Part shown: in pieces, positions 46,913 to 64,000 of the stretch | Layout of the letters: every line of letters begins with the position of its first letter | How positions within the stretch are numbered: the stretch's first letter is position 1 | Virus record (IMG/VR): IMGVR_UViG_3300045125_000031 | Coordinates: 1-64,000 of that record | Reading direction: 5' to 3' (one strand) | DNA length: 64,000 nucleotides | Origin: a virus | The notes under the pieces: model-generated | What the model was told of the DNA's origin: nothing | Database searches by the model: none | The model's input: the letters and a program-made list of their open reading frames with translations, nothing else | Made by a program: the position numbers and the translations under genes

Positions 46913-49900
46913 TCATACTGCAGATGAGGTAGACTGTTGCCATAAAACGTCTTGGTAGATATTGTACTCACATTCACCAATACCAAAAACCTTATCTGTA
47001 CCAGTTATTATTTTATTTGTTCCTACGTAACTCTTATATACATCTTCTGGGTCTACACCATAATAACTAATTGAAGACTGTACTAGAACACCGTTCCATA
47101 GGAAGAACTCTGGTACCCAATACTCCCAATCTAAGGTCAAAGGCCCAGATCTCTTTACCTGGAACCAAGGTCGCTTAGAAACCTTTTGAACTTCCTGTAA
47201 GTTGGTAGATTGATAATAAGATATATTGTTAAATAACAATGGTCCGTTTAATTTTATAGATCCAAATACTCCAGAAATATCAAGAAGGTTGAAGAAAAAG
47301 AAATACCAAGGAACGCCCACTGTTTAATGGTTAGGACTGGGTCCTTAACAATCTTGCCATTGAGATAAAATGCTATTCCATTTTCTATTCTTCCAGTTAA
47401 TGCATTAACTCCGTAGATCTTTCCTCTTCGTCCAGTTTGATCATTTGCAACTATATAAAATCTTAATGTATGAATTTTTGCTTCGTGATTTCAAATATTT
47501 GTTGAGGCGCATATGGGAAGTAGTCTTCATCAAATCTAACTGCAAGTTGCATAGCCATAATCTTATCGAAGTCTGAAGTTTGATTTTCATTTATTGGAAT
47601 CAGCAAACCTCTATTGATTAAAGGATCTTGCTTACCTCTAATTTGAATACCACTTGTTCTTGTCATATATAAATATGGCGATGTATTTTTATAAATACTG
47701 TAAGGATTTTTTCCTTTGTAGTTATAATAAATGCCAGATTTTTTATACGGATACATCTTTACATAAGGACTTGTTCCTATAGGGTTGCTATTATTATTAA
47801 AAGCCTGAGAACAATATTCTAGTTTCTTAAGTTTAACTTTTGTTTCTTAAAATATTTTTTACTTTAAATTCTAGGTGAGTAACCAAAGAAAAGTTCATTA
47901 AAGTCTACGTTAGAGGGAGGATAAATAATCATATTATCTATAACTTCGTACTTACTACTTACCCAGTTGTTTCCTGGTTCTACAGTTCCTTCTTTTGCTG
48001 CTGGTTCAATATGTGTAAAGAAAGAACTGCTTTGAGTTGCTCCTGCCTTAGTGTATTGAAAACTTACAAAAGATCTTACAAGAGATTCACTAGTGTCATA
48101 TTTATATGTTCTGGTTACATTATATTGTAAATCTTCATAATCTCGATATCCAGTAAACAAAAAATTATCCAAAGAGTCGTATGTTCTTTTTTTAGGATAA
48201 TTAAACTTATTATAAAGTTCTGCATAACTCCATTCTGTTGGGTCTGTTTCTATTTCAAAAAACTTAGATGGTGCTGGATAGTTTATGTTAAACTGCAAGA
48301 AGTCTAGGTCATATACCCTGTCTCCTTCTGCATCATCAACAAATTGTGCATAATATGTTAGTGGTTGATAATCTTCCCAATATCCAACTGTATCTATATC
48401 AAGTTGATATTCATCAAAATATCGTGAAGCAACTAATGTATAACTAGCAGTATGATCTAATATTTTATCAAAAGCATTAATCCAGCAGTACCGCCATCCA
48501 AAATATAATCCCAGAGTTGTTGATTGTACAGCCCACCGTCCAAAGTAATAGAATGTATATAATCTTCAATTGTGTCATAATCTGATGGAAGTCCATCTGC
48601 ACCAAATGCTGGTGCAATTAAAGAATGATTCCTGGCATTTGAAAGTCCAACCTTATAAATATTCCCATCAAACCATGAAGCAAAATTTTCATCATTTCCA
48701 ATGTAAAGTTTGCACTGTGAAATATTTCCAAGGATCGCTGCTACCTCTCCTCCATACCATCTAATTAAATTTTCAATATGGAATCCAGCATAAAACTTTT
48801 CACCAGTTATTATTTCTATACTTTCATGCTCAATTTCTGTAGGTAGATTATCTCCAAACTTTTACAACATATGTAATCTTTTTTGCATCTTGATAAAGAT
48901 ATATGAAAATAATTTGATTAGGATCTATAACTTTAAATAAAGTCATAGGCTGCTCAACACCATTAATATACTTGCAGATCCAGTTTTCTTGAAATACACC
49001 GTAGATACTTTTAACTTCTTGTGCTAAGAAATTTAAATTATTAAAATATAGTTGGGCACAGTAGTCAGAGTTTGGCCTTACCTTAAAATATTCATCTCCT
49101 AATTCTGAAGGTAACTGAGAGTTTATGGATAGCCAGTCGTTATAATATAAACTACTATTTGCTCCTTGATAATTAATTAAAAACTCTGAAGGTTATAGTC
49201 TGGCGTAGAAAGCATATTATTTTCATAATTTAAATTATCATTTATTCCTTGATTCCAATTTCCTATATCTGGATAAGAATAGTTATTTGAATAGTCAGCA
49301 AATGCATAATCAATAAGCAAAGACTGTCCACTATATGCTGTATTTATATTATCTGGTGCTTGAACACCCTGTCCAAAAACTAGTCTTCTTTGGCTACAAT
49401 ATTAGAAACTTTATATGGGTATATCCCCACACAATCTATTTCTATTGGTGACACATCTTCGTATGACCAGAACCCAAGCCATTCTTTTGTAGAGTTAAAC
49501 TCTAAATCAGCAGTTTTATATGATAAAGACAATACCTCTTCGCCATTTATATAAAGTTTTGAAGAGTTGTCTAAATATAAAATATGAACAAGCATTGGTC
49601 TTGTCCACTCCCAATGTAATGTGATGCTGACTTATTACCTATCTTTAAAACTAAAAATGGACCATCTACATATAAACCGCTGTCATTTACTAAACTTCCA
49701 AATATCTTTTTAGGTTCTGTAGCATTACAATTTATTCTTAGCCACATTTCAACTGTATATGTTCTATACTTTCCATTATCATTTAAAAATCCTTCAGATG
49801 GAAGAATTAAAGATGGTTTGCCATCGTTTGGAGTTATAACTGTACAATTTTCTGTTCCATAAACCATTGGCGCTCCAACATTTTTAGCAACAAGAGAATT

Positions 49901-50610
49901 TTTCTTAATAAGATAGTACCCAGTGTTTTCTTCTAATCCATAAGATCTTGCTGGATATCCGTACTCGGTTTCATCAAATATTCCAGTAGGTATTTGTACT
50001 GGAGTAATTCCTAAAGATGTTGACGCAAACTCTTCTGACCATTGTCCAAGTGTTAAACCATTTACTAAAATTGTGTTTTCTTCAGAATCAGAATACCCGC
50101 CAAGAAAGTTTGCTTTAAATACTAATCTCATTTCACCACTAATATTCGGTACAGTAAATGAATTAGAAAGGAACATCCACTTTTCCATTATTGTTGTATT
50201 AAATATTTTTGTCTTTTTACCCAGTCACCTAGTGGTACATCGTAATATTCATAACCAATTTCATAACTAGTTATATAAGCACTATTTGAATAGACATAAA
50301 CACCTATACAAAAAGTTCCTAAATCTTTATTAATATCAGAGAAATCTAAAATGCTTGAACTAACGCATGAGAAAGAACCGCTATCAGATGATATTACATT
50401 ACCAGATATTTTAGTTACACTAGAATTTGTAAAAGGTTCTCCAATTATCCCTAATGCTTCTTCAATTGAACATCCTTCTGTAGCAACTATAAATGTTTCT
50501 ATCAGCGTCAGATATTAATGATAAATAGTCTGCGCTATCATCTAAAGACCAAAGAGCGATTGATGAATTGCGAATGCTTTTTCTGCATATAGGTTAGATT
50601 GGATAGACAT
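46913..50610 (-). CDS. Large virion structural protein (~1,200 aa) with a LamG/concanavalin-like region
   Basis: Start MSIQSNLYAEK...ALWSLDD; YTVEMWLRIN and SKLYINGEEV LamG-like strands; several ORF fragments tile the region. Confidence 0.6.
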
Positions 50611-50630
50611 TATGAGTCTATTTTATCACA

Positions 50631-52680
50631 CTACGAGATTTTTATTTCGCAAGCATCTGTAGTACAGTACATTTCTCCCTGTGCCTCGAGATTTTCCGCT
50701 CCGTCATAAATAGCAGACCAGTCAATCTTTTTGATATTGCTCCAATATAACTGAGTCATATTCTTCTTTAGTAATTTGAGTGTATGGCTGTTGAGGATAT
50801 GTATGATTTCCCATTGGCAAGAATGAAACAGCCTTTAGTTGTCCTTCGTACATATGAAGTGCTGGAGCAACATGCTTTGACTCAGTTTCTTTGTCAAATG
50901 AAAGCGTTACAGAAACACCATTATCAGACCAGTATTTTTGAGCAGTAGCAGCAAGCGCAATCTTCTCAAATAATGTTACATCCTTTTCAGATCTTGGATG
51001 TCCAGAATGAACTGGGAAATAAACTACAGATGTATTTGCAGATACGAGGTCTGCTTCAATCTTATATCCCGCTGCTTTAAACAAATGCAATCATTGGATC
51101 TGTATTCCCAAAACGAATTGCACGCAAGAAATAATCTCCTCCTGGTGCCCAGTGAACTCCTGGGGTTGCACCAGAAAGAATTGATACTGATCCTGATGGC
51201 TTAACAGTTGTTACACGAATTGATTCACGAACACATAGCCATTCAGAATATGAGTGATCATATTTACGAATAGTTTTATATCCTTCATCCATCCATTCAC
51301 GAACTACTGGCAAGCCATATTTATCTGCAGAATGATGCAATACCTGTAAGAGATGTTCCAATACGACGATTACGTTGCATGATTCCATTTGTCTGTTGCC
51401 AATGTGTTGGAATTAATGTAACAGTCTTTCCATAAAGATAAGCAAACTTGAGTGTCTGCAGGAAGTCCTCCTTAGATTCATGACGATTCAAATGTACTTC
51501 GACTAGAGTACATAATTCGTATGACTTCTAATGGCTGCTCCGCACATGGATTGAAGCCCATAACACGATAATCTTTGCCATCTGCTGGATCTGCAAGACG
51601 ACCATAATTACGAGCAACATCAAGCCAGATAAATCCTGGCTCTCCGTTATCTACAATTAGATCTACATAGTCTTCATACTTTGTGCCTACTGTTGCAGAA
51701 ATAGAATTATTAGACATCCATGCCCAACCTGGATTTTCTGGATCATATGAATTACGCTCTGGAAATACTTCTGCATTCTTTAAGATTAATAAAATCTTCA
51801 TCTCCTGCAGCACCCAAGTGCAAGGGTGGCAGAACGACGAACATTTCCTGAAACAACACAGGTACCAATAAGATTTACGATATCTACAATTGCTCGTGAA
51901 TCAAGTGTTTCTCCTGCTCTACCGCCAATTACAGTCACGAATGCGTGTATGTGAAGGTCAATAAGTGGCTGCTGGACCGCTTGCAACGCCTCCAAAGCCC
52001 TTAATAGGGGCTCCTAGAGGACGGATAAGGTCATAGTTAAACTCTTGAATTGCTTGATTTGGCTTTAAGTATGAATTAATAACATTCTTACAGACTCTAC
52101 CCAACCTTCACGAGTATCTGGAATTTCATAAATAGATGCTGGTTCTGTTGGAGCATAAATAGGCAAATTGCTTTTCTTGTCCAACAGTATCAAATCCAAC
52201 TCCAATACCAAGCATTAATGCATCCATAACCCAAGCAAATAGTGCTCCTGGATCATTTTTGATCAATGATCTCTTGTAGATACCATTGCACAATTTTGAA
52301 GGGCAGCAGAATTTTTCTTCTCCATAGTCATAGGAGTACCAAATGCCCACAGGCCACGTCCTGGTGGAGTCCACTTTAAATTCAAACATTCTTTGAAATG
52401 CTTCTTGTGCAGATTTCTGAGCCTTATTGTCATTCCATGGTAGACGATTTTCTTTAGCATGATTCTTCTGTACTGAGTACATACCCTCGATTACACGACT
52501 GACAAACCTCATGCCAGCGTTCTTTAGTTCCATCTTCCTTCACACGAGAGTAGGTACGAATAAATGTAATCTCTCCCAAGTGAATTGCCTCCAGCATCCG
52601 TAAATCCGAATGGTGGCTCTTTGTCTTTATACTTATTTACGAACTCTTCTAGACAAACGAAAACTAAAAAAATCAGACAC
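50631..52680 (-). CDS. nrdJ: Class II (adenosylcobalamin-dependent) ribonucleoside-triphosphate reductase
   Basis: FIRTYSR, WTPPGRGLW, ALQNCA, VVSGNVRRSA, GFNPCAEQ, TTVKPSGSVS, WSDNGVSVT and C-terminal YCTTDACEI. Confidence 0.93.
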
Positions 52681-52768: not shown

Positions 52769-53350
52769 TTATAGAGTTTGCCAATGTAGGTATTCTCTAA
52801 AATATCCATGCTGCATTACTGTTGGGTCTACCCACCAATCTTCATTGTAAGATCTTTGAACAAGGGCATATCCAAATGAATCAAGTATCTCTCTTTGTAC
52901 ATCTCTAATTTTACTATTTCTCCAATACATGTCCGAATCGTGTTCAAATGTAATTACGCTAAATCTGTATGTATTTAATGGCATTGCTATAAGACCTTGC
53001 AGCGTCAAATGACTATTCCCAACTGGCCTTCCTGCCATATCATATCCAGCGTCTATGTCTAATTGCAAATAGTCTATTTGTTTTGGAAAGTTATTTTTTT
53101 CAAAATAATCCATATAGTTAAATGATAGGGCATCTCCCATGCATGGATTCTTTCTATTAGCATTAAACTCTTCTTTCATAGAGTCTATTATTTCAAAAGA
53201 TACTCCAGTCCAATCATACTCATTTTCTAGCAAGTATGTATTATTACCATTGCTGTAGTGTGCTGCCCCAAGTTCTACATAGTATCCATTCTTTTTACCA
53301 TTTAAAATATTAATAATAAATTCTTCTTGCTTTGTAGTCATGTGTGTCAT
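52769..53350 (-). CDS. FkbM-family SAM-dependent methyltransferase
   Basis: GYYVELGA...NNTYLLE..YDWTGVSFE...IDYLQLDID...FSVITFEHD. Confidence 0.8.
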   Translation of the reverse strand: MTHMTTKQEEFIINILNGKKNGYYVELGAAHYSNGNNTYLLENEYDWTGVSFEIIDSMKEEFNANRKNPCMGDALSFNYMDYFEKNNFPKQIDYLQLDIDAGYDMAGRPVGNSHLTLQGLIAMPLNTYRFSVITFEHDSDMYWRNSKIRDVQREILDSFGYALVQRSYNEDWWVDPTVMQHGYFREYLHWQTL

Positions 53351-53911
53351 TGAAATAAATCTCCTTTTAGTCTTGTCGGTTTTTTTCTGTTCCATGGATA
53401 AAAACGGTAGAGAAGTATCTTATTGTATCATCTAAAACTGGAAGAGATCCGTGAACAATGTGCCCTCCATGTATATATAAAGAATTAGATTTTGGCTTAA
53501 CCGTAATATTAATATCTGGATAGTCTAACTCTCCACCAGTATATTCATCATTATAATATAAACAAAAGCCATATCCAATATAATAGTCTATATCTGTTCT
53601 CCATTGATCTGCATGATGCGTTATAAAATCTCCTTTTTTATATCTCTGTAAATGCAGTTTATCTGGATAATAAGAATATGACTCAAATAAATTTTTCATT
53701 TTTTCATTTATATCGTCAAAAATATTTTTGTCTTTAAAGCATAAAGTTTTTCCAAACCAAAAATCTGGAATATTTTGTTCTTTTTTCATTTCTTCATCAA
53801 GCCATTTATCTTCTGAAGTATTTTTATAATTTTATTAACTTCAAACATTTCTTCATCAGTAAGAAAGTTATTAATTTCATACACATCATCATATAGTTTA
53901 TTAATTTTCAT
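53347..53911 (-). CDS. 2OG-Fe(II) oxygenase, prolyl-4-hydroxylase-like (#8)
   Basis: HADQW...LYYNDEYTGGELDYP...HGSLPV...TIRYF. Confidence 0.85.
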
Positions 53912-53916
53912 TTTAG

Positions 53917-54586
53917 TTACATATACTTATTGTTAAATATATGACTTACCTCCAAGTGATTTATATTCATATGTTTTGGCAATGAGGCCACCCACCTAAT
54001 TGTTTCAGCCATGTCGTTAGCAGTAAGGGCATTATCTTTTTTCTATTTGTGTGTCAATTGTCCCTGGACATATTTCTGTTATCTTTATTCCATATTCAGG
54101 AAATTCCATACGCATTGTATCTATTAACGCCATTTGATCCTCGTTTGGCATTACTATAATTGCCTCCGCCTCTAAATGGAACTTTTCCACATAAAGATGT
54201 TATAAAGATAATTGTTGCAGACTCTGATTTTTTCATAGATGGAGCAAATAACTGAGACAAGTACATTGGCCCAGAAACATTAATATCATATGCTATTCTA
54301 AAATTTTCCATAGTTTCATTAATAATATGTGTTGGTCCAGAACCTCCGCCAGCATTATTAACTAATAAGTCTAATGTTATGTTTTTATATTTTTCAAAAA
54401 AAGTATTTAATTTCATTCTCTTTTGTTATATCTAATTTATAAATTTCTACCATTATCAGATAATAATCCAGACATTTTATCAACATCTCTCGAAACAGCA
54501 ATAACCTTATATCCGTTTTCAGATAAAAGTTTAACGGTTGCATAACCTACACCTTTACTTGCACCAGTAACGATGGCTGTTTTCAC
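53917..54586 (-). CDS. Short-chain dehydrogenase/reductase (SDR)
   Basis: GTG start MKTAIVTGASKGVG (TGxxxGxG), LLVNNAG, YSNAK (YxxxK), EICPGTIDT. Confidence 0.9.
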
Positions 54587-55317
54587 TACATGCCTTGCTG
54601 CTGGTTAAGTTGCATATTGTTATGTATCCAATGACCTGGGACCATATACTTAACACCAGACTTTACTGTATGTGCCGTATGAAAATATGGCGCTTCTGCT
54701 GGGAAAATAATAACGCTATTTGCTTTTGGTTTTATTCCGAAATCTATTGCATTGTTTGCAACAGCATCATCATAATCTAAATTAACTGGTGGAGCACCAT
54801 GAACCCATCCATCTTTGCTATTCCATCCACCATCATAATTTTTTAATTGAAAGGATATCTCTCCACCATCGCAGTCATCATTTAAATACATGACTAGAGA
54901 GTATCTCAAAGTCTTATCGCCATCTAATTGATCGAAGTGTGCACCCATTGCCATTCCAGTATAATATTTCTTAATATTAAATGTTGGGAATAGCCTTGGC
55001 TCGTCAAAATCACCTAGTGACTCTGCATAATCCTTACATACATTATATAGGGTTGTCATGACTGAATCATAAATATATTTGCTTTTTTCTCCAACTATAC
55101 CGCCAGACTTTGAGATGGCATCTATATCAAAAGTCTTTGTTTCTCCATAAATAAAATCTTTGTCATTAGAAGATGTCCACTTTTGCCAAAGATTAACCTT
55201 TGTATCATCATAAAACTCCATGGTATCTAACTCACTTAAAGTTTTTAAAAACACATCAAAGTTATCTATTGCGTCTGTATAATAATATACTTTTGGATCA
55301 AGAATTTCTCTATTCAT
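54586..55317 (-). CDS. 2OG-Fe(II) oxygenase, prolyl-4-hydroxylase-like (#7)
   Basis: HFDQ...MYLNDDCDGGEI...FHTAHTVKSGVKYM; intact ORF. Confidence 0.88.
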   Translation of the reverse strand: MNREILDPKVYYYTDAIDNFDVFLKTLSELDTMEFYDDTKVNLWQKWTSSNDKDFIYGETKTFDIDAISKSGGIVGEKSKYIYDSVMTTLYNVCKDYAESLGDFDEPRLFPTFNIKKYYTGMAMGAHFDQLDGDKTLRYSLVMYLNDDCDGGEISFQLKNYDGGWNSKDGWVHGAPPVNLDYDDAVANNAIDFGIKPKANSVIIFPAEAPYFHTAHTVKSGVKYMVPGHWIHNNMQLNQQQGM

Positions 55318-55318
55318 T

Positions 55319-55977
55319 TTAATACCTATTTCTTTCGTAATGACCTATTTCTTTTATAAAGCCGACTATAACATATCTTATTGGCCCATCCCCTACATGC
55401 TTTACACCATGCTCTATACTCTTCATTTCCTGGAAAAAACAATAAGTCTCCTGGTTTTGGCCTCAATGATATATCTTTATTTGGAAAGAATAATTCTCCA
55501 TCTACGTAGTCATCATTAATGTATATTATTGTTGCATAGTGTATAGATGGATCTGTATGCTGATCAGTATGTGATTTCAGTTCTACTCCCTTTTGCATTC
55601 TTTGAATAGTGGCAAGCCCACTAAGTTCAAGTCCTGGGAAAGAAGGGTGAATTATATTTGCTAGTCTTCCGTAAAAACATTTTGTTCTGGGTGATGCTTA
55701 ATATTTAAATTTTTATCTACCCAATTTTGAGTAATTTCAAATTTCCCTTCAGCGACTAAGTTGTCAACATCTTCTCTGCCAAACTTTTCTAAACAAAATC
55801 TTTTTAGATTTCCCATATACTCTACTTCCCAATCTTCTTGAGACGCACCATTAATTATATTCCAAATAAAATCTAATTCTTCTTTTGTCAAAAAGTCTTT
55901 AATCCAAAGTAGTTCTGGAGTTACTTCTTCAAACTCTAAGTTATTATTTTTAAATTTTCTTTCAAAGAATCCATCAT
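55319..55977 (-). CDS. 2OG-Fe(II) oxygenase, prolyl-4-hydroxylase-like (#6)
   Basis: HTDQH...IYINDDYVDGELFFP...EHGVKHVGDGPIRYV after correcting indels. Confidence 0.85.
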
Positions 55978-55978
55978 A

Positions 55979-56731
55979 TTAAACAGCATCTCCTTTAAAT
56001 AGATATTTATTGCCATCTTCATCTATTTTATATCCATCTTTTAGAAGTTCTTGCCATTCTGCTCTTTCAACTTCTTGCTTGGCTCTAGTCTCTTTCATTT
56101 CTTGCGCCCAAGCGTCTCTTAGTTCCTGTGGATATGCATCTTCTTCACGATCATCCCAGAATGAACCTATTGTATATCTAACTCCACTAGTTATAAGAGT
56201 TACCTCATGCATATTGTTGAATCCCCCGTCAAAAGCAGCAAGCATTCCAACTTTAGGCTTTATGCTTATTTGTTGATCTGGGAAATGCAAAAGTCCTCCA
56301 TCAAAGTTATCATTCAAATATAAAAATGCAGCATATCTACTTCTAGTAAATGCTCCAGAGTTTCCGTGTTCATCTGTATTATCAGAATGCTTTCTAGCAT
56401 AAGCCCCTGGTTCCCATTTCTGAGTATGATATCCAATTTGAGATATTATCTTTGAATCTAAATCATGAACGCTGGCAACTGCTTCTACAATACCCTTTTT
56501 AATTGTGTAAAAATATCAGAAGGTAAACCTTCGGCAATTACATGCTCGTCGTTATCTTGTGGCAAAACAGAAGAATAAGATTCATAAAACGATATAGGCA
56601 TCCAACTAATGGTCCCTATTTCTGCATGTTTATCTAAAACTTTTATAAGTTTATCGGCAGTTTTCAGAATCAATAAAGTTTTCATAAACAACTATATCTT
56701 TTGTTAGTCTAACTTTATTTTCTAAGTTCAT
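55979..56731 (-). CDS. 2OG-Fe(II) oxygenase, prolyl-4-hydroxylase-like (#5)
   Basis: KHSDNTD...LYLNDNFDGGLL...MHEVTLITSGVRYT. Confidence 0.87.
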
Positions 56732-57604
56732 CTAATTCTAACTCCTTCGATTGAATCTTTATTTGCAGCATATTTGCCTATCATCTCTTTATGTAATTTA
56801 GACCAACTTTCAGTACCAAGTTCTTTTTCTTTATCAAACCACTCCTGATCACCTATCTCCATATTTTTTCAAATAGTTTCTTATTAAGTATTTTTCTGTT
56901 TTAAAAGATGGGAAAACGCCATGTAAGTAAGGTTGATTATTTTTATTTAAAACATCTGGGTGTCCACTAGGGAAAACTACCCAATCACCTGCAACTGGTT
57001 TATACTTTATTAGATTACCATCTATATAAAAGTCAAGTTCTCCTCCATCATAATCATCATTAAAATAATAATTAGCAGTTATTGCAAACTTATAGCCTGG
57101 ACTTTTTACTGGCTCTCTTACATAATCAGAATGATATCGCATTGACATTACAGTATCTATATTTTTATTATATCTGCATATAGAAGGTCCTTCTTTTTTC
57201 CATAAAGGCAAATAATTTCCATCATGGTCTTTTGTTATTTCTTCTTCATTATAATTAAACATGTCTTTATATTTAGAAATATATGCGTCCATAGTTTTAT
57301 TAAAACCATTACTTATTTCTAACAAAAGATATTTTTGATCTTCTTGTATTTTACTATTAGTTTTTAAGTCATTTATCAATTGAGAATTAAATTCAGCAGG
57401 CTTTCCTGTTTTTGGATTTAATTTAGAAAGTTCTGGAAAAGCAGTCTGAATATAACGACCAAAACCTTGCCAATCAGACCATTCTCCTAAAATTCTATCT
57501 GAATTATTGTTAGCAGATTCTTTAACTATCTCATATAATCTTTCTGGTTGATCATTAACATTTTTATATATCATTATGTTTTCATATAATTCTATCTCTT
57601 CCAT
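56728..57604 (-). CDS. 2OG-Fe(II) oxygenase, prolyl-4-hydroxylase-like (#4)
   Basis: YHSDY...YYFNDDYDGGEL...YLHGVFP...TEKYLIR. Confidence 0.85.
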
Positions 57605-57606
57605 TA

Positions 57607-58364
57607 TTATCTCCTTATTCCTTTTTTTGGATCCCAAGACTTTACTTCTTCTTCTGTAGGAAAAATTCTATGGTACTTTGTATTTGGGTCTGGTTTTACA
57701 TCTCCAGTATGCTCTAAAATTTCCCAGAAAAACGGACATGTATATCTTAAAGATTTTGTGACTTCTGTTACTCCATGTACATAGTTCATGTCTCCTGGGA
57801 AAAAATATGCCGAACCACGTTTTGGTTTAAATTGAACTTTTTGATATGGAAAGTATAACTCTCCACCCTCATAATCATCATTGATGTAAAATAAACTTGA
57901 AATATCATAATATGGAAAATCGTTTGGTAATCCAGCATCTGATCCAAAATGCAATTCTTTGTCTGCGTGAGGCATTTGGAACTGTCCTGGATTCCACTTA
58001 ACAATTGTTTGTCCTGTAGACTGTACTTTGACCTTAAAAAAATCTTCAATAATTGGTTGAAGTCTACTAAATAATCCTACTAAAACTGGAAGAATTTTTG
58101 GATCATTTGCATTTAAAGATGGCGCAGTTGCAACTCTATCTTTCCAATAACTTGAATCATAAATAACAGTTCCATTTTTCATTTATATGGCTTTGAGTAA
58201 CATCCCAGATAGTTATGTTTCTTGCTGCTTTTTCTAAAAAATCAACTTCTTCTTCAGTCATAAAATTTTTCTAACTCAACTATATTTTCAGCACCATAGC
58301 CAAAAAACCCAGATGGGGTGATTGATGGATGTCTTATTACTTTTACTGCATCTTCTGGTATCAT
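57607..58364 (-). CDS. 2OG-Fe(II) oxygenase, prolyl-4-hydroxylase-like (#3)
   Basis: PHADKE...FYINDDYEGGELYFP...YVHGVTEVTKSLRYT. Confidence 0.88.
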
Positions 58365-58376
58365 ATTATTATTATA

Positions 58377-59083
58377 TCATCCTATAGTATTATCTTTTAC
58401 GTATAATTTTAGGGTTTTTACTTCATGAGACCCTACAGATTCATTCTTTTCATTTACCGCATTTCTATACCAATCGGTCCAGTTGCCAGATGAATTAAGC
58501 ACTTGTGCTGCTTCTCCGTAGGCAATGTTTGCATTTGTTCTAGAACGATCTACATCTTTATATTCTACAATCTCAATTGATGTATTATTTAAATTTGTTA
58601 AAGATATTGGAATAATTGTTGCAATAGGAGTTCCTGCTTTTATAATAGTTTCTACGTTAGCCTTTTTGCCTTAAGAGCAAGAGGCAACGGGTTATCATAA
58701 AATGAAGTACTTATTACACTAGACATAGTTTCAAAGTCATCATTAAAATAATTAACTGGATGTATTGTCCAAATACTAACATCTGGATCTGTTCTAAAAA
58801 CCAAAGAAGTGTTTAAACTTATTGAAGATTGACCTCTTCCAGAGTATGAACCTGATGGACTTACAATCTTTATATGCTGGTCTGTCTGATCATTTATTCC
58901 ATCCCACGTAAAAACTATATCTTCTGAACATGAAAGATACCAACCTATAACATTTGACTGAGTTACTGGAAAACATCTATATGCGTGGTTTTCAGACGTT
59001 AAGTCCATCCAATCTCTTTTAATTGACATTGGTTCGATGTTAAAAATACATCCCTGCATTTTTTCAACAGTAATATTAAACAT
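58377..59083 (-). CDS. DUF6065-like protein
   Basis: KRDWMDLT..NHAYRCFPVTQSNVIGW...DIVFTWDG...IKAGTPIATIIPI; family pattern recognised from memory. Confidence 0.65.
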
Positions 59084-59766
59084 TATTCATTTGCCCACTT
59101 TGGATCATACATATCTGGTGTATGATATTTTTACCTGTAATCTAACATTGTTACAATTGAATATTTAGTTCCAGAGTGTACTGGCATTGCTTGATGTGGA
59201 TACATAAAATTTGACGGGAAAACATATAGATCTCCAGCCTTTGGTTTTATATTTAGATTTTGCAGTCTAAAGTATAACTCTCCACCATCGTAGTCGTCAT
59301 TAATATAGGCAACTAAGGAAACGGTACAGTTATAAGAGAATCCATGGTCATGGTGTTCTTTGAAGTGTTGGCCTGGTCCATACTTGATAAAGTTAAGGCT
59401 TCCCAATATTTTAACGGCATAATGTTGTAATCTCTACGATAATCATCTACTGCTGCTGCCTGTGCATCATATACATCTTGCCAAATTCCCTGAAGCAATA
59501 AAGAGTCCTTGCTTGGATCTGATTCAATATCAGTTTTCTTAAACTTAAAGTCATAGCAGTCACGATAGTCTGGCATTAATTGTTGATATCCTACATATGC
59601 TGGTAGCCAGTGATAAGGCTTACCCTCTGGAGATAATTCCGCCCCATGGTGCTGGAGAACCCAAAATATTTTCTAATCTTTCTATAATATTTAGTTCTGG
59701 CTTAATGACACCTCTATAGCAAGTAATTCCAAACCCTAATGTTTCTTTTTCTGTCCAAGTTGACAT
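59083..59766 (-). CDS. 2OG-Fe(II) oxygenase, prolyl-4-hydroxylase-like (#2)
   Basis: EHHDHG...AYINDDYDGGELYF...YPHQAMPVHSGTKYS. Confidence 0.88.
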
Positions 59767-59777
59767 GATATCTCCTT

Positions 59778-60554
59778 TTACCTATACTCTCTTCTTGTCC
59801 AAACTTTATCTTTATATACCCCGCCATCTGGTTGACGATAAATATTTGCGTTATCTACTATTTTAGCATATACCGTTGATGAATCAAGAATATCAAGTTC
59901 GTGTCTCCCAATTTTCTCTTTTAAATGGGAGTATCTGCAAGTATGGTGTTCCTGCTGGTATAGTTCCCTCCCAACCTTCAATAATAAAAATGGAAAACTA
60001 CCTAATAATTCAACTTTATCTGAATCTACTACGCCAGTAGTATTCATAAAAGGTAGATCAAACCTATTCATAGGTGTCATAAATAATGCACTATAGCCTT
60101 CTGGTAACTTCATGCCCCAGTCTGGCATCCAGGCAAAATGATCTTTGTAATATCCTTGAGGATGTTCAAATTGTGCCATTGGTGGTCTAGATGTACAAAA
60201 ATCTCGATACATTTGATTTCTATTTTAAAATCTAAAGATCCTTTATTATTTTTAGTAAATGTAATGTCAGTTGAGTTCTAAATACATATCCAGTTATAAA
60301 GGCATCCATGATTGCTGGACATGCTTTCTCATGTAGGAATCATTCCATAATCATCTGTAGTTCCAGATTTTGGAAATGGACAAACCTCTTTGGGGCCTTA
60401 TAGTATTCTCCATTAATTGGATTTTTAGCAAACCTATCAGCATCCTTATACCATTGAGGTATTTCTTTTTGTGTAGGAGTTGGGGCAGATTTGCTTTCTT
60501 TGTTAGCCAAGGACGGTATGTCTTAAAAGAGACACTTTTTATATCATCGGACAT
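59778..60554 (-). CDS. DUF6065-like protein (second, divergent)
   Basis: IPQWYK...KACPAIMDAFITGYVF...LPEGYSALFMTPMNRFDLPF...GVVDSD...TIPAGTPYLQILPFKRE. Confidence 0.5.
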
Positions 60555-61267
60555 GCTGATGACCTAACTCATTAATATCAGTCATGATTACGACACAATA
60601 CTTTGTACCGCTCTTCATAGGAAGAGACGCATGCTCATAAATGTAGTTAGATGGGAATACAGCAATATCTCCAACCTTTGGTGTAAGAGTATAGCCGTCT
60701 AATCTTGGAAATTGTATTTCTCCGCCTTCGTAGTCATCATTGATATAGATAACAGCAGAGACAGTTGCATTATATGCTGGACCATGATCTGCGTGAATAT
60801 TAAAGTGTTTTCCTTCGCCTTCATATTTTACAAAATTAAATGCTTCATAATAAATAACATTAATTCCCCAATAACGTGCATAATCATCTATACAAAACTT
60901 TAATTTTTGATAAATTTCTTCATGTAGGTCATAAGTTCTCCATTAAATCTCATCTCTGGGGCCAAGATTTTCTTGCTTGTATTTAAAATCTACAGCATCT
61001 CTTGCTCTTTTAATTGGTGTTGTAGAGTTTGTAACCTGTGCTTCTGACCATTTGTATCTTTTTGTTCCATCTAAATTTGATTCAAGTATTTTAATATATC
61101 TGTCAGCATCATCTTTACTAAAAACATTTCTATAGACGTTTAACCCAAGTCCAGGATTTTCTACAACTATACCATTTGGTAAAGTTTTTGTTGGATATCT
61201 TGTTTGATGCAGTTTCTGAACGATCTTTAGTAAACCAAGGATTCTGGTTTTCATCATAAATTTCCAT
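60544..61267 (-). CDS. 2OG-Fe(II) oxygenase, prolyl-4-hydroxylase-like (#1)
   Basis: The C-half is absent from the ORF track: NIHADHGPAYNATVSAVIYINDDYEGGEIQFP...YEHASLPMKSGTKYC. Confidence 0.87.
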
Positions 61268-61292
61268 ACTGACTAACCTTTCAAAGTTAAAG

Positions 61293-61731
61293 TTATGCTA
61301 CTGTGCTAAAAGAGGTTCCGTCCCTGTTGTATGTTTGTCCAACATATACAGTTTGTCTTTCTGGAATCTTTGCTAAGATCATACCTGCAGCATTTGCAGC
61401 AGCAAACATCTCTGCCTTTGGACCTTCTGACGGTACTGCCATTCTTGCAACAACAACATTGTTAGATAAGAATGCATACAAATTAAAAGAATCTAATTGC
61501 TCTTGTGTAGCATTTAATAGATTAGGGACCTGCAGTTCCTCCAGAAAATGATGAGCCATTGAAAGTTGCTCCATGAAGTGCTGTTTGCTTATATGCACTT
61601 GCATCAATTGCTGAAATAGTTGCTCCAGTTTCATAAACTGTATCAAGATTATCCATTACCTCTGGCTTATTGCTTGAATATATTCCAATAACATCATAAG
61701 CATCATTGTTTTCTACTAATATTGCGTACAT
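61293..61731 (-). CDS. Hypothetical protein with two internal pseudo-repeats (possible partner or chaperone of the upstream FN3 protein)
   Basis: ORFs 61522..61731 and 61293..61646 joined. The halves begin YAILVENN / YAFLSNN and end GATFNGSSF / GQTYNRDGTSF. AGGAG RBS and a TGCTATAAT promoter upstream. Confidence 0.6.
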
Positions 61732-61772
61732 TAATAATCTCCTTTAGTACTTTTATTATAGCATATGTTATT

Positions 61773-61804
61773 TAGTAGGGGCATATCTTCATATACCCCC
61801 ACTA
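61773..61804 (-). terminator. Hairpin directly after the stop of the FN3-PFF gene
   Basis: Minus strand TAGTGGGGGTATAT-GAAG-ATATGCCCCTACTA (14-bp stem with 2 G-U pairs); no clear U tract. Confidence 0.55.
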
Positions 61805-61807
61805 ATT

Positions 61808-62780
61808 TTAACAACCGCATGATCTTCCTGGACAGCATACGCTACATCTCCAACAATATCCACAGAAGCAACTTCCGCCTCCGCCACCAGATGGTGGTGG
61901 TGAGAAACTTGGTGGGAAGAATGGGAAGAACGGGAAGAATGGGAAGAACGGTGGGAAGAATGGGAAGTAAGGGAAGTAAGGGAAGAACGGTGGGAAGAAT
62001 GGGAAGTAAGGGAAGAATGGGAAGAACGGTGGGAAGAACGGGAAGAATGGGAAGAATGGGAAGAATGGTGGGAAGAATGGGAAGAACGGAAAGAATGGAA
62101 GAATGGTGGGAAGAATGGGAAGAACGGGAAGAATGGGAAAAACGGCGGGAAGAACGGGAAGAATGGTGGCGTGGTATTAACACTATTTGTAGTTACACCA
62201 GTTGACTCTCCACATGCATTTGTAAGATAAATTGTATAAGTTTGAGAACCTGGGATACTCCAGGGTCGTTAGCAGTATATGATGTGCAGAACCAGATATA
62301 CCAGTATAACTTGATCCATCCGAACCAGTGATTCTGATTGATGTTGATTGCAGTACCTCCAGTTGCTGATCCTGCTGGAAGAGTCCATGATATTGTGTTT
62401 GTGTTAGCAGATGTAGCAGATGCTGAAACACCTGTAGGATTGTTTGGTCTTGTTGTAACTGTTACGGAAGATGAAGCAGATGATGCTGCTGATGTTCCAG
62501 AAGCATTAGTTGCTGTTACTGTAAAAGTAGGTGTTGTTCCTGCAGCAATTCCAGTCACAGTAATTGGAGATGATGCTCCAGTTCCTGTTTGACCAGTGCT
62601 TGCTGTAACTGTATAAGATGTTGCTGGAGGAGAACCTGCGGTAATTCAAATGGCAACTGACACAGCACCATCGTTGTATGCTCTACCACTACATGTTTGT
62701 TGGAACAACACTTAATTGGTGGCTTTGGCTCCAAGAAGTCATTTGCTGCTGTGACTTTCTACCTACTTTTTAGTTGCCAT
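61808..62780 (-). CDS. Two fibronectin-type-III domains, Pro-Phe-Phe repeat, Gly linker and 8-Cys C-terminal peptide (probable virion appendage protein)
   Basis: ATG at 62780 with AGGGG RBS. FN3 motifs PATSYTVTAS...ITVTGI......TFTVTATNASGTS and PNNPTGVSA...TISWTLP...TYTIYLTNACGES. Then TTPPFFPFF-(PPFFPFFPFFPFF)x6-PPSFSPPPSGGGGGSCFCGYCWRCSVCCPGRSCGC* (TAA at 61808-61810). Requires correcting a few indels, one inside the repeat at ~62098. Confidence 0.85.
61910..62169 (-). repeat. Coding tandem repeat: 9-nt CCN-TTC-TTC units nested in a 39-nt higher-order unit
   Basis: 26 P-[F/Y]-F triplets. Variation is confined to synonymous third positions (CCA/CCG/CCT, TTC/TTT) plus three F-to-Y changes. 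Confidence 0.92.
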
Positions 62781-62803: not shown

Positions 62804-64000
62804 TTACTTAAGATCTCCGTAAACAATCCAGGTATTTGCTGCTCTCTTCAATAGAGTTGCAGATGACCATTGTGTACGTAGAGTTAATCCTGGAGTAGCA
62901 TTTACAGTTACTCCTGCGCCTGCTGCAATTGCAACTGCGCCTGTATTTGTCTGAAGAACATCTGATAGAAGTTCCTATTGGGAAATTCGAGGTCGACTGC
63001 AGGAATTGTAACGTTTACTGCTGAACCACCAGTGTGAGAAACCTCAATAAGTGAATCTCTTTCGAGTAATGCTCGCAAGAGTACTACGCTGTTTTTCTGA
63101 ATAATTGGTGTTCGTGAAGGTACACCTTCCTTTGTTTGTGTTCCGTCTCGTAAATGCAACACCGCTTGCTGCAACGGTTACTGTTCCAGTAAATGTTGGT
63201 TTTGCAAGTGGTGCTTTTGCTGCAAGAGAAGTTGTTGCAGTTGTAGCAAAGTTTGCATCGTCACCAAGTGCTGCTGCAAGTTCATCAAGAGTGTTGAGTG
63301 CTGCTGGAGCAGATGCGATTACTGCATTTATTGAGATGTTGCATCTGCAATTGCTTCTACTTTGCAGTTGCGATTGCTGTTGACTTGTGCTATTGATACT
63401 GGCTTATTTGGCATCTGATGTGTTGTCAACATTGCCAAGACCTACCATTGACTTTGTAACACCAGATACTGTTCCAGTAAATGTTGGTGATTCAAGATCT
63501 GCCTTTGCAGCAAAGACTTGTTGAAAGTCCATCAATCTTGACTGTGCAATTGCTGCTGAAGCATTAATATCAGCATTTACAATTGTGTCCGTTTTCAATC
63601 TTTGCAGATGTAACGGCTCCATCAACAATCTTTGATGTTGTTCACAGAGTCTCCGCAAGTTTGTCTGCGGTTACGTTGGAGTCAACAATCTTTGCAGTTG
63701 TAACTGTATTATCTGTTGGTGTTCTTGTATCTGATAAACGAGCATCGTCTGTAAGCACAAGATCTGCAGTATCTAAAATTCCATGTATGTTTGTTGTGTC
63801 TGCTCTGTATGATCTTCAATTTCTGAAGACAAGGCCAATGCTGATGTATCGTCAATTCCATGTACATTAGTTGTATATGATCCATGTGTTGAAATAGCAT
63901 CAGTTACATAAGATTCTGTTGCAAGTTCACCTGTATCTAAAATTCCGTGAACATTTTGTGTAAGTAAGTTATGAGTTCCTACTTCACCAACTGCTGCGGT
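62804..64000 (-). CDS. Tail fibre-like protein (5' part lies outside the window)
   Basis: Repeated T.NVHGI.DT..L units; VTKSMVGLGNVDNTSDANKP; APAALNTLDELAAALGDDANFAT..LAAKAPLA.PTFTGTV fibre motifs; C-terminal module FPIGT...TVNATPGLTLRTQWSSATLLKRAANTWIVYGDLK*. Confidence 0.75.

Follow-up and report, generated by a model that had tools for sequence, protein, structure and literature searches.

The window analyzed here, 64,000 nucleotides in length, was the first 64 kb of the 101,241-bp IMG/VR virus record IMGVR_UViG_3300045125_000031 (CheckV completeness 92%), with a GC content of about 35% and nearly all genes on the minus strand. At positions 52769-62780, a gene for a proline- and phenylalanine-rich repeat protein with two fibronectin type III (FN3) domains, named PFF protein after its repeat, preceded an array of eight 2-oxoglutarate (2OG) and Fe(II)-dependent oxygenases resembling prolyl 4-hydroxylase (P4H) (ox1 to ox8), two DUF6065-related proteins (D1 and D2), a short-chain dehydrogenase/reductase (SDR) and a probable methyltransferase. 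All genes of the cluster were present and all lay on the minus strand. Across the relatives of this phage, the PFF repeat protein and the enzyme block were confirmed to form one conserved, linked two-part unit.

In the related contig L001 (relatives are denoted by L and G numbers), the DNA of which was about 90% identical to that of the window, every gene was present and unbroken. The order in L001 was tail fibre, FN3-FN3-PFF protein, a 145-aa gene, ox1, D1, ox2, D2, ox3, ox4, ox5, ox6, ox7 and SDR, followed 3' of the SDR by a class II ribonucleotide reductase and then by a 1233-aa LamG-like protein. Compared with L001, the window had ox8 and the probable methyltransferase added between the SDR and the reductase. 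Stop/start overlaps joined most array genes of L001. The original prediction, made from the letters of the window alone, had described a co-oriented and mostly overlapping block of eight oxygenases, two DUF6065-like proteins, an SDR and a methyltransferase-like gene, and both the layout and the count were recovered from the window and L001. A promoter and terminator scan of L001 revealed no more sites than were found in shuffled sequence and was uninformative on transcription units.

The open reading frames of the flagged stretch were short and fragmented. When the intact L001 proteins were mapped back by tblastn, most genes shifted frame one to four times, and in the window just three escaped, ox7 and the methyltransferase-like gene entirely and ox8 for the most part. 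The 1233-aa structural gene shifted frame eight times in the same mapping, and the ribonucleotide reductase was also frameshifted. Because an essential reductase and a structural gene were broken as well, the breaks were attributed to assembly errors and not to pseudogenes. The stretch that holds these two genes (46916-52680) contained many frame changes, and gene calls on this contig should not be relied on until the assembly is polished.

The 3' part of the tail-fibre gene was located at 62804-64000 (minus strand) by tblastn mapping of the L001 orthologue; beyond the window, the gene extended on the contig up to about 64.9 kb. The orthologue (L001:587-2800, 737 aa) carried an Mtd_N domain and many PHROG tail-fibre and minor-tail matches. 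The small gene between the PFF gene and ox1 (sm145, 61293-61731, minus strand; orthologue L001:3877-4314) had neither a Pfam nor a PHROG match, and it was kept in many relatives, not in all.

Linkage of the repeat gene and the oxygenase array

The linkage was sampled from seeds placed on the enzymes (ox7, D1 and a divergent D1), not on the repeat. The ox7 seed yielded 52 loci, and a PFF gene was found 39-3632 nt before ox1 in all 24 distinct loci with enough upstream sequence (23 counted by script, L024 by hand). With the D1 seed, a PFF gene stood ahead of the array in 32 of 32 loci, and the divergent D1 seed led to another subclade (contigs of up to 153 kb), in which the same PFF-before-array pattern was seen. 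A scan seeded on the repeat itself found more than 120 loci, mostly in the order fibre, PFF, array. Arrays independent of a PFF gene were looked for among more than 100 distinct loci and none was detected, so that the predicted co-occurrence of repeat gene and oxygenase array held throughout. In G001, the array had moved to another place and taken a short fibre-PFF pair of its own along, and a second such pair remained beside the reductase. In L023, L030 and G003, the fibre gene did not lie ahead of the PFF gene.

The size of the array ranged from 1 to 13 oxygenases, always headed by PFF. Among 85 distinct arrays, ox2 was present in 99% and D1 in 98%, followed by ox1, ox3, ox5 and D2 (about 91-92%), ox7 (82%), ox4 (56%) and ox6 (51%); ox8 was absent from L001, and ox4 from relatives of the L009 type. 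The SDR (39%), the methyltransferase (19%) and ox8 (15%) were accessory, although the original prediction had counted them as full members of the block. The minimal arrays (L325-L327 and L338) consisted of a PPYF-repeat protein, ox2, D1 and one gene without assigned function, and no further PF13640 gene was detected on a 48.7-kb minimal-array contig. The minimal unit is PFF, ox2 and D1, with ox2 and D1 as the core of the array. The repeat span rose with the number of oxygenases (Spearman 0.40, p 5.5e-4, n=70), a correlation in which kinship was ignored and the small arrays came from few lineages. The module lay in a region of virion genes, as the tail-fibre gene is found upstream of it and the gene of the LamG-like 1233-aa protein downstream.

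These loci belonged to a large group of uncultured freshwater phages of about 100 kb with hundreds of relatives. The reductase shared 63% identity with its counterpart in Actinomycetia phage DSL-LC01 and 61% with the one in Mycobacterium phage Gaia, and the prohead protease resembled those of large Streptomyces phages; the host was likely an actinobacterium. WhiB and tRNA genes gave no help in naming the host, and megablast of the region against isolated phages gave no match. Contigs of the clade (L177-L181) were binned in metagenome-assembled genomes of Beijerinckiaceae, Luteolibacter, Flavobacteriales and Acidimicrobiaceae from lake metagenomes, which was probably mis-binning and not host evidence.

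The Pro/Phe repeat protein and its tips

The PFF gene occupied 61809-62780 (minus strand). Its ends were read directly, ATG at 62780 and TAA at 61811-61809, and three-frame translation gave about 324 aa through three frame changes, in agreement with the intact orthologue of 324 aa (L001:2826-3800). The Pro/Phe(/Tyr) repeat was placed at 61911-62169. Tandem Repeats Finder reported it at 61911-62163, with a 39-nt unit, 6.5 copies, 90% matches and no indels; the unit encodes 13 residues, PPFFPFFPFFPFF. A Pro/Gly linker and a C-terminal tip with eight Cys followed at 61809-61910 in the three-frame translation. All the parts that had been described beforehand, namely two FN3 domains, a P/F/Y repeat and an 8-Cys tip in a gene directly after the tail fibre, were thus found in place. 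The FN3 Pfam score of the L001 protein was 22.6 bits, just below the cut-off of 25, and PF00041 was present in most homologues.

The PFF family comprised at least 791 clusters at 90% identity, all metagenomic and named at most "hypothetical" or "Fibronectin type III". It had no entry in a PHROG search, and literature searches found no description of Pro-Phe repeat proteins or of DUF6065. Its members, 230-570 aa long, began with a short conserved N-terminus, which was followed by one or two FN3 domains and the stalk, and they ended in a small hypervariable tip. The stalk was about 40% proline and measured 30-240 residues across the clade, almost solely PFF and PPFF units. Whole PFF proteins shared only 42-59% identity with that of L001, and the FN3 part about 45% (by eye), though the repeat was kept at the protein level with conservative variants (PPYF, PPWF, VPPFF, PSF, GPFF; F to Y or W). 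Glycine at every third residue, as in collagen-like Gly-X-Y, was looked for in the repeat and not found; only P, F and Y were used, with periods of 3 and 4 mixed. Inside the repeat, in the window and 32 relatives, 93% of Phe codons were TTC compared to 79% TTT in neighbouring genes, and CCG was enriched. The TTC bias may reflect selection for fast decoding, or it may serve to avoid slippery T-runs.

All six reading frames of the repeat DNA were open, so the choice of frame needed outside evidence. In principle, the tandem repeat could be a feature of the DNA alone, or it could encode a collagen-like (Gly-Lys-Asn) protein on the antisense strand, and the fragmented window genes could be decaying pseudogenes; this reading was favoured by the six open frames and the heavy frameshifting in the window. 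The Gly-Lys-Asn frame has wobble positions in common with the sense frame, and synonymous variation alone cannot discriminate between the two. However, the PFF/PPFF frame ran on from the FN3 domains to a proper tip and a conserved stop in more than 100 intact relatives, PPFF units disrupted the Gly-X-Y periodicity, the antisense gene had no start or stop context, and substitutions in the sense frame were conservative. As for decay, the reductase and structural genes were frameshifted too, and the relatives were intact. Based on the intact relatives, the conserved frame and the frameshifts in essential genes, the antisense and pseudogene readings were rejected and are refuted for practical purposes.

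The tips of PFF proteins were hypervariable. Several mutually unrelated Cys-rich peptides were found, besides acidic tails, and some phages had a Hint-type autoprocessing domain in this place. The genome of the window also encoded, at L053:10714-12594 (minus strand; 74.7-76.6 kb of the genome and thus outside the window), a 626-aa SP/AP-repeat protein that ended in the same tip as its PFF protein. One tip type, CxCGYCWRCxVCCPG, was found in G000/G009 and another, CxxECG...CPPSLxC...CGNC, in G006, each on two Pro-rich proteins of one phage; the G006 counterpart of the SP/AP gene carried PFFPPTFQA repeats and had its tip type in common with the PFF protein of that phage. By sequence comparison, tips co-vary within genomes and differ between genomes.

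Hint/intein-like domains that start with Cys directly after the last repeat were observed at L024:3-539 and L175:2-583 and in the PFF genes of L263, L337 and L323, and PF14890 and PF07591 also occurred among PFF homologues. With such a domain, the C-terminus of the stalk may be autoprocessed or ligated. PFF/PPFF repeats were also present inside larger proteins of 959-1561 aa (among L056, L110, L112 and L169), and at L038:15467-16339 the repeat was an internal linker of a 290-aa protein beside a second fibre gene. Because tips are shared and variable, repeats serve as internal linkers and the gene follows that of the tail fibre, the PFF protein reads as a modular appendage with an anchor, a stalk and an exchangeable tip; its location in the virion is inferred.

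Oxygenases, DUF6065 proteins and accessory enzymes

The eight oxygenase genes, all on the minus strand, were located at 60544-61267 (ox1, 46.6 bits to PF13640), 59083-59802 (ox2, the core enzyme, 60.1 bits), 57607-58364 (ox3), 56728-57637 (ox4, about 302 aa, 32.4 bits), 55979-56731 (ox5), 55322-56022 (ox6, placed by tblastn mapping, 27.7 bits), 54586-55317 (ox7, PF13640 at 4e-9) and 53367-53911 (ox8, a small enzyme). All eight reached the PF13640 gathering score of 27, seven of them at 27.7-60.1 bits in a six-frame search and ox4 at the score given above. The HxD...H iron triad and the downstream Lys/Arg that binds the C5 carboxylate of 2OG were conserved in all eight families, judged from alignments of 19-102 sequences per family in which these residues were kept in at least 60% of sequences and mostly in at least 95%; in ox1, HxD...H...K was conserved over 102 sequences. 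The N-terminal 100-130 residues were distinct for each family.

Profiles of ox1, ox2, ox3, ox5 and ox7 were searched against solved structures. The ox2 profile matched the P4H of Bacillus anthracis (8e-9), then the P4H of Paramecium bursaria chlorella virus 1 (PBCV-1), P3H1, PiuC and LH3/lysyl hydroxylases. The nearest solved relatives were the B. anthracis P4H and LH3 for ox1, PiuC, P3H1 and P4H for ox3, and the B. anthracis P4H (2e-6) and P3H1 for ox5, while ox7 had no solved relative at E < 0.05. Peptidyl prolyl or lysyl hydroxylases were thus among the nearest solved relatives of four families, ox1, ox2, ox3 and ox5. Together with PF13640 and the kept active-site residues, these relatives place the four families with oxygenases of the prolyl/lysyl-hydroxylase kind, in line with the P4H-like assignment of the original prediction. 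For TET/JBP (PF12851), the single match was in ox3, at 16.9 bits and below the cut-off of 34.9.

The two DUF6065 proteins foreseen in the original prediction were identified by different means. D2 (58377-59083, minus strand) matched PF19541 with E 1e-23 at 58691-59062 of the window and with E 1.6e-26 on L001 (93.7 bits, cut-off 26.6). D1 (59778-60554, minus strand) was unmatched by Pfam and was related to DUF6065 by profile-profile comparison (hhalign to the DUF6065 alignment, 96.5% probability) and by PHROG 7084 (E 1e-33), which was common to D1 and D2. The sequence profile of D2 found no relative among solved structures. An AlphaFold2 model of D2 (predicted local distance difference test, pLDDT, 72) matched dUTPases at ranks 1-14 with Z 8.6-11.3, compared to about 4 for unrelated rows, and Foldseek gave E 2e-4; DUF6065 thus models as a dUTPase/dCTP deaminase-like fold. 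The Asp of dUTPase motif III and the C-terminal P-loop-like motif V were absent from the invariant columns of the DUF6065 alignment, in our own reading made without residue-level structural alignment, and nucleotide catalysis by DUF6065 appears doubtful on the basis of these columns. Against isolated phages, tblastn of D2 gave one weak match only, in cyanophage S-RIM4. There, a DUF6065-like hypothetical protein (L192; MK493321.1 158324-159118) was encoded just downstream of nrdA/nrdB with no neighbouring oxygenases, and the surroundings offered no functional clue besides the nearby nrdA/nrdB. The bacterial DUF6065 context, a Caulobacterales metagenome-assembled genome with a thioredoxin-like gene and DUF4174, gave no functional clue either.

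The SDR (53918-54586, minus strand) was assigned unambiguously from its sequence, with adh_short (PF00106) at E 2.9e-40 on L001:11021-11689 and both the Gly-rich NAD(P) motif (TGASKGVG) and the Tyr-x-x-x-Lys motif (YTNAK) in that protein. The last gene (52769-53395, minus strand) encoded a probable S-adenosylmethionine-dependent methyltransferase, and the FkbM identity proposed for it was kept as tentative. A methyltransferase-like gene was indeed present and was named FkbM in Atlas clusters (at 0.97; PF05050 in 24% of one cluster). However, the protein had no Pfam match, its profile found no solved relative, and its model (pLDDT 57) gave weak matches to class-I methyltransferases, so that the fold was not firmly called.

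In some relatives, the slot between PFF and ox1 was taken by protein-modifying families, namely radical SAM/SPASM, Asp/Asn beta-hydroxylase, sulfotransferase and O-methyltransferase. The slot varied between two phages (L175:585-6096 and L024:540-4249), one with a TylF-like O-methyltransferase, a radical SAM/SPASM protein, a pyridoxal phosphate (PLP) Cys/Met enzyme and a GMP-reductase-like gene, and the other with sulfotransferase-like genes, an Asp/Asn beta-hydroxylase and a luciferase-like monooxygenase. In minimal arrays, D1 is followed by a 229-aa gene that was considered as sulfotransferase-like; this was dropped as the gene had no Pfam match.

Candidate substrates of the array

We regard the chances as evenly balanced that the array modifies, by hydroxylation, stalks of the PFF type. 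A substrate-enzyme relation is argued for because the linkage withstood rearrangement, the enzymes are kin to prolyl and lysyl hydroxylases, about two fifths of the stalk is proline and the module is placed among virion genes, and also because protein-modifying families enter the slot and a parallel cluster of an SP/AP-repeat protein, a P4H-like enzyme and an epimerase exists in the genome. In aquatic phages, genes for prolyl-hydroxylase-related 2OG/Fe(II) oxygenases rank with the most frequent "auxiliary" genes, but no substrate of these enzymes is known (PMC3037559, PMC12774648); the PFF stalk is the best candidate yet for a natural one. In the proposed mechanism, the genes would be expressed together with the tail-fibre genes, and the oxygenases would hydroxylate stalk prolines and perhaps other positions too, with paralogues serving different sequence contexts or carbon positions. 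Hydroxylation could solubilise an extremely hydrophobic, self-associating Pro/Phe segment and set its stiffness, and for adsorption the stalk would hold the variable tip at a distance from the particle. A fuller version is offered tentatively, as an idea that we ourselves find somewhat doubtful: a hydroxylated Pro/Phe "aromatic zipper" stalk would be made by an expandable pathway of up to 13 oxygenases with dUTPase-fold adaptors, and it would represent the first natural substrate class of PHROG-61-type enzymes.

The original prediction had framed the locus as a substrate-plus-tailoring cluster with a layout like that of ribosomally synthesized and post-translationally modified peptides (RiPPs). 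The first half of this description is partly supported, by one conserved linked unit with oxygenases of intact active site. The second half had to be abandoned, as no short leader/core precursor, protease or exporter was found in the block and the candidate substrate is a 324-aa multi-domain protein. By analogy only, both kinds of system place a polypeptide gene beside tailoring enzymes, and one relative has radical SAM/SPASM in its slot, but across the family the candidate substrate here is a protein of 230-570 aa with folded FN3 domains.

Several points weigh against hydroxylation of the PFF stalk. Every locus came from one broad clade, and the linkage is partly inheritance. PF13640 includes enzymes with non-peptide or undefined targets, such as PiuC, which was met in the ox2 and ox3 searches. 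No match was found by tblastn of the PFF protein against isolate phages, in a search whose low-complexity filter hides the repeat. Among isolates, the closest homologues of ox2, which itself matched PHROG 61 at 1e-26, were cyanomyovirus oxygenases at 30-38% identity. In PBCV-1, which has the best-studied viral P4H, hydroxyproline was undetected in virion proteins and the role of the enzyme is not established (PMC7019647). Furthermore, the PFF-ox1 slot also holds metabolic genes (GMP-reductase-like, PLP Cys/Met enzyme), the array adjoins ribonucleotide reductase in most arrangements, the DUF6065-like gene of S-RIM4 likewise lies beside reductase genes, and DUF6065 itself has the predicted dUTPase/dCTP-deaminase-like fold. 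The same genome also encodes a collagen-like protein and the SP/AP protein, both Pro-rich and both candidate substrates as well.

Many of these points also favour another view of the array, as cargo or an auxiliary island that lies by chance where the fibre module ends on its 3' side and that acts on host proteins, a small molecule or nucleotides/DNA. PFF would then be no more than the conserved last gene ahead of an insertion hot-spot. Such an island would readily explain a slot that accepts unrelated metabolic genes, as well as an SDR, an ox8 and a methyltransferase that come and go. The dUTPase-like fold of DUF6065 and the nearby reductase genes keep a nucleotide-directed function alive, the failure to detect hydroxyproline in PBCV-1 virions also counts for the island, and the literature on the homologous oxygenases of cyanophages has considered roles in 2OG/nitrogen status or DNA repair and not virion proteins (PMC3037559). 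On the other hand, a hot-spot would not preserve ox2 and D1 in 98-99% of arrays or as the sole survivors in minimal ones, and in G001 a PFF gene moved along with the array. The oxygenases are not of TET/JBP or AlkB types, the lone TET_JBP match being far below its threshold, and the catalytic motifs of dUTPases appear not to be conserved in DUF6065 by our reading of the invariant columns. On this evidence, we judge the island possible and, taken by itself, rather improbable.

A further alternative is that the array modifies virion proteins, but mainly other Pro-containing ones (collagen-like, SP/AP, tail fibres), with the PFF stalk at most one target. A 242-aa protein with the collagen triple-helix repeat PF01391 was encoded in the same fibre region (L053:14135-14863, minus strand), and it is possibly another prolyl-hydroxylase substrate. 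This protein and the 626-aa SP/AP protein speak for such targets, as do the many genomes with at least two PFF-type genes, of which one only adjoins the array, and the 7-13 distinct paralogues, which exceed the apparent need of a two-residue repeat. However, the SP/AP protein has a P4H-like gene of its own nearby. It lies in a sister cluster (L053:5519-10434, minus strand), where the SP/AP-repeat protein is followed by a P4H-like oxygenase and an NAD-dependent sugar epimerase/dehydratase; putative glycosyltransferase-like genes of the cluster had no Pfam match. In G006, G007 and G008, the three more distant relatives in which it was sought, the SP/AP-associated P4H-like gene encodes a separate protein of 216-226 aa, and in L185 and L187, the two relatives with a visible repeat, a Pro/aromatic repeat is found in the gene neighbouring it. 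Given that PFF is the sole partner always adjacent to the array, we consider it unlikely that other virion proteins are the main targets.

In plant and algal hydroxyproline-rich glycoproteins, such as extensins and arabinogalactan proteins, a Pro-rich rod is hydroxylated by P4H and then decorated by glycosyltransferases. The sister cluster, with an SP/AP-repeat protein, a P4H-like gene and a sugar epimerase, resembles this layout, whereas the PFF array has no glycosyltransferase and belongs to a prokaryotic virus. To our knowledge, Pro/Phe repeats are not among the motifs of these glycoproteins. Synthetic aromatic-zipper tripeptides have the same tripeptide unit, and in them Pro hydroxylation alters hydrogen bonding and mechanics; this is a resemblance only, as they are free tripeptides in crystals and fibres, and a like packing of a polymeric (PFF)n segment is hypothetical. 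The best solved relatives of ox1, ox2, ox3 and ox5, namely B. anthracis P4H (3itq, 5hv0), P3H1 (8k0e), LH3 (8zgc) and mimivirus lysyl hydroxylase (6ax6), share with the array the HxD...H triad and the 2OG-binding Lys/Arg. They differ in that identity is limited to a catalytic core of about 90 residues, the N-terminal region of the phage enzymes being unique, and in that they act on collagen-like Gly-X-Y sequences, a type to which the PFF stalk does not belong.

Among viruses, PBCV-1 encodes a P4H and proline-rich repeat proteins (Eriksson et al. 1999, as cited in PMC7019647 and PMC9301287). It is similar to the phage described here in combining a small P4H-type 2OG oxygenase (PDB 5c5t, matched by ox2 and ox3) with Pro-rich repeat proteins, and different in having a single enzyme, a eukaryotic algal host, another kind of repeat and no reported DUF6065 partner, compared to 1-13 paralogues always beside one repeat gene. 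The cyanomyovirus oxygenases of PHROG 61 are the nearest isolate homologues and likewise occur in several copies per genome with no known substrate, but they belong to myoviruses of cyanobacteria and have been read as 2OG/nitrogen or DNA-repair functions (PMC3037559, PMC12774648). The kind of system, a virus-encoded P4H with Pro-rich proteins, is therefore known; the Pro/Phe stalk family, the expandable array with dUTPase-fold partners and the invariant linkage of the two are new.

The clade offers a concrete candidate pair of enzyme and substrate, reduced at its simplest to a single repeat protein with a single oxygenase and a single DUF6065 protein, together with a natural expansion series. 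A stalk of tens to hundreds of residues made only of Pro and Phe is an undescribed protein repeat, and its material properties are likely to be unusual. Being both shared and hypervariable, the tips suggest a modular device by which phages of abundant freshwater bacteria would recognise their hosts.

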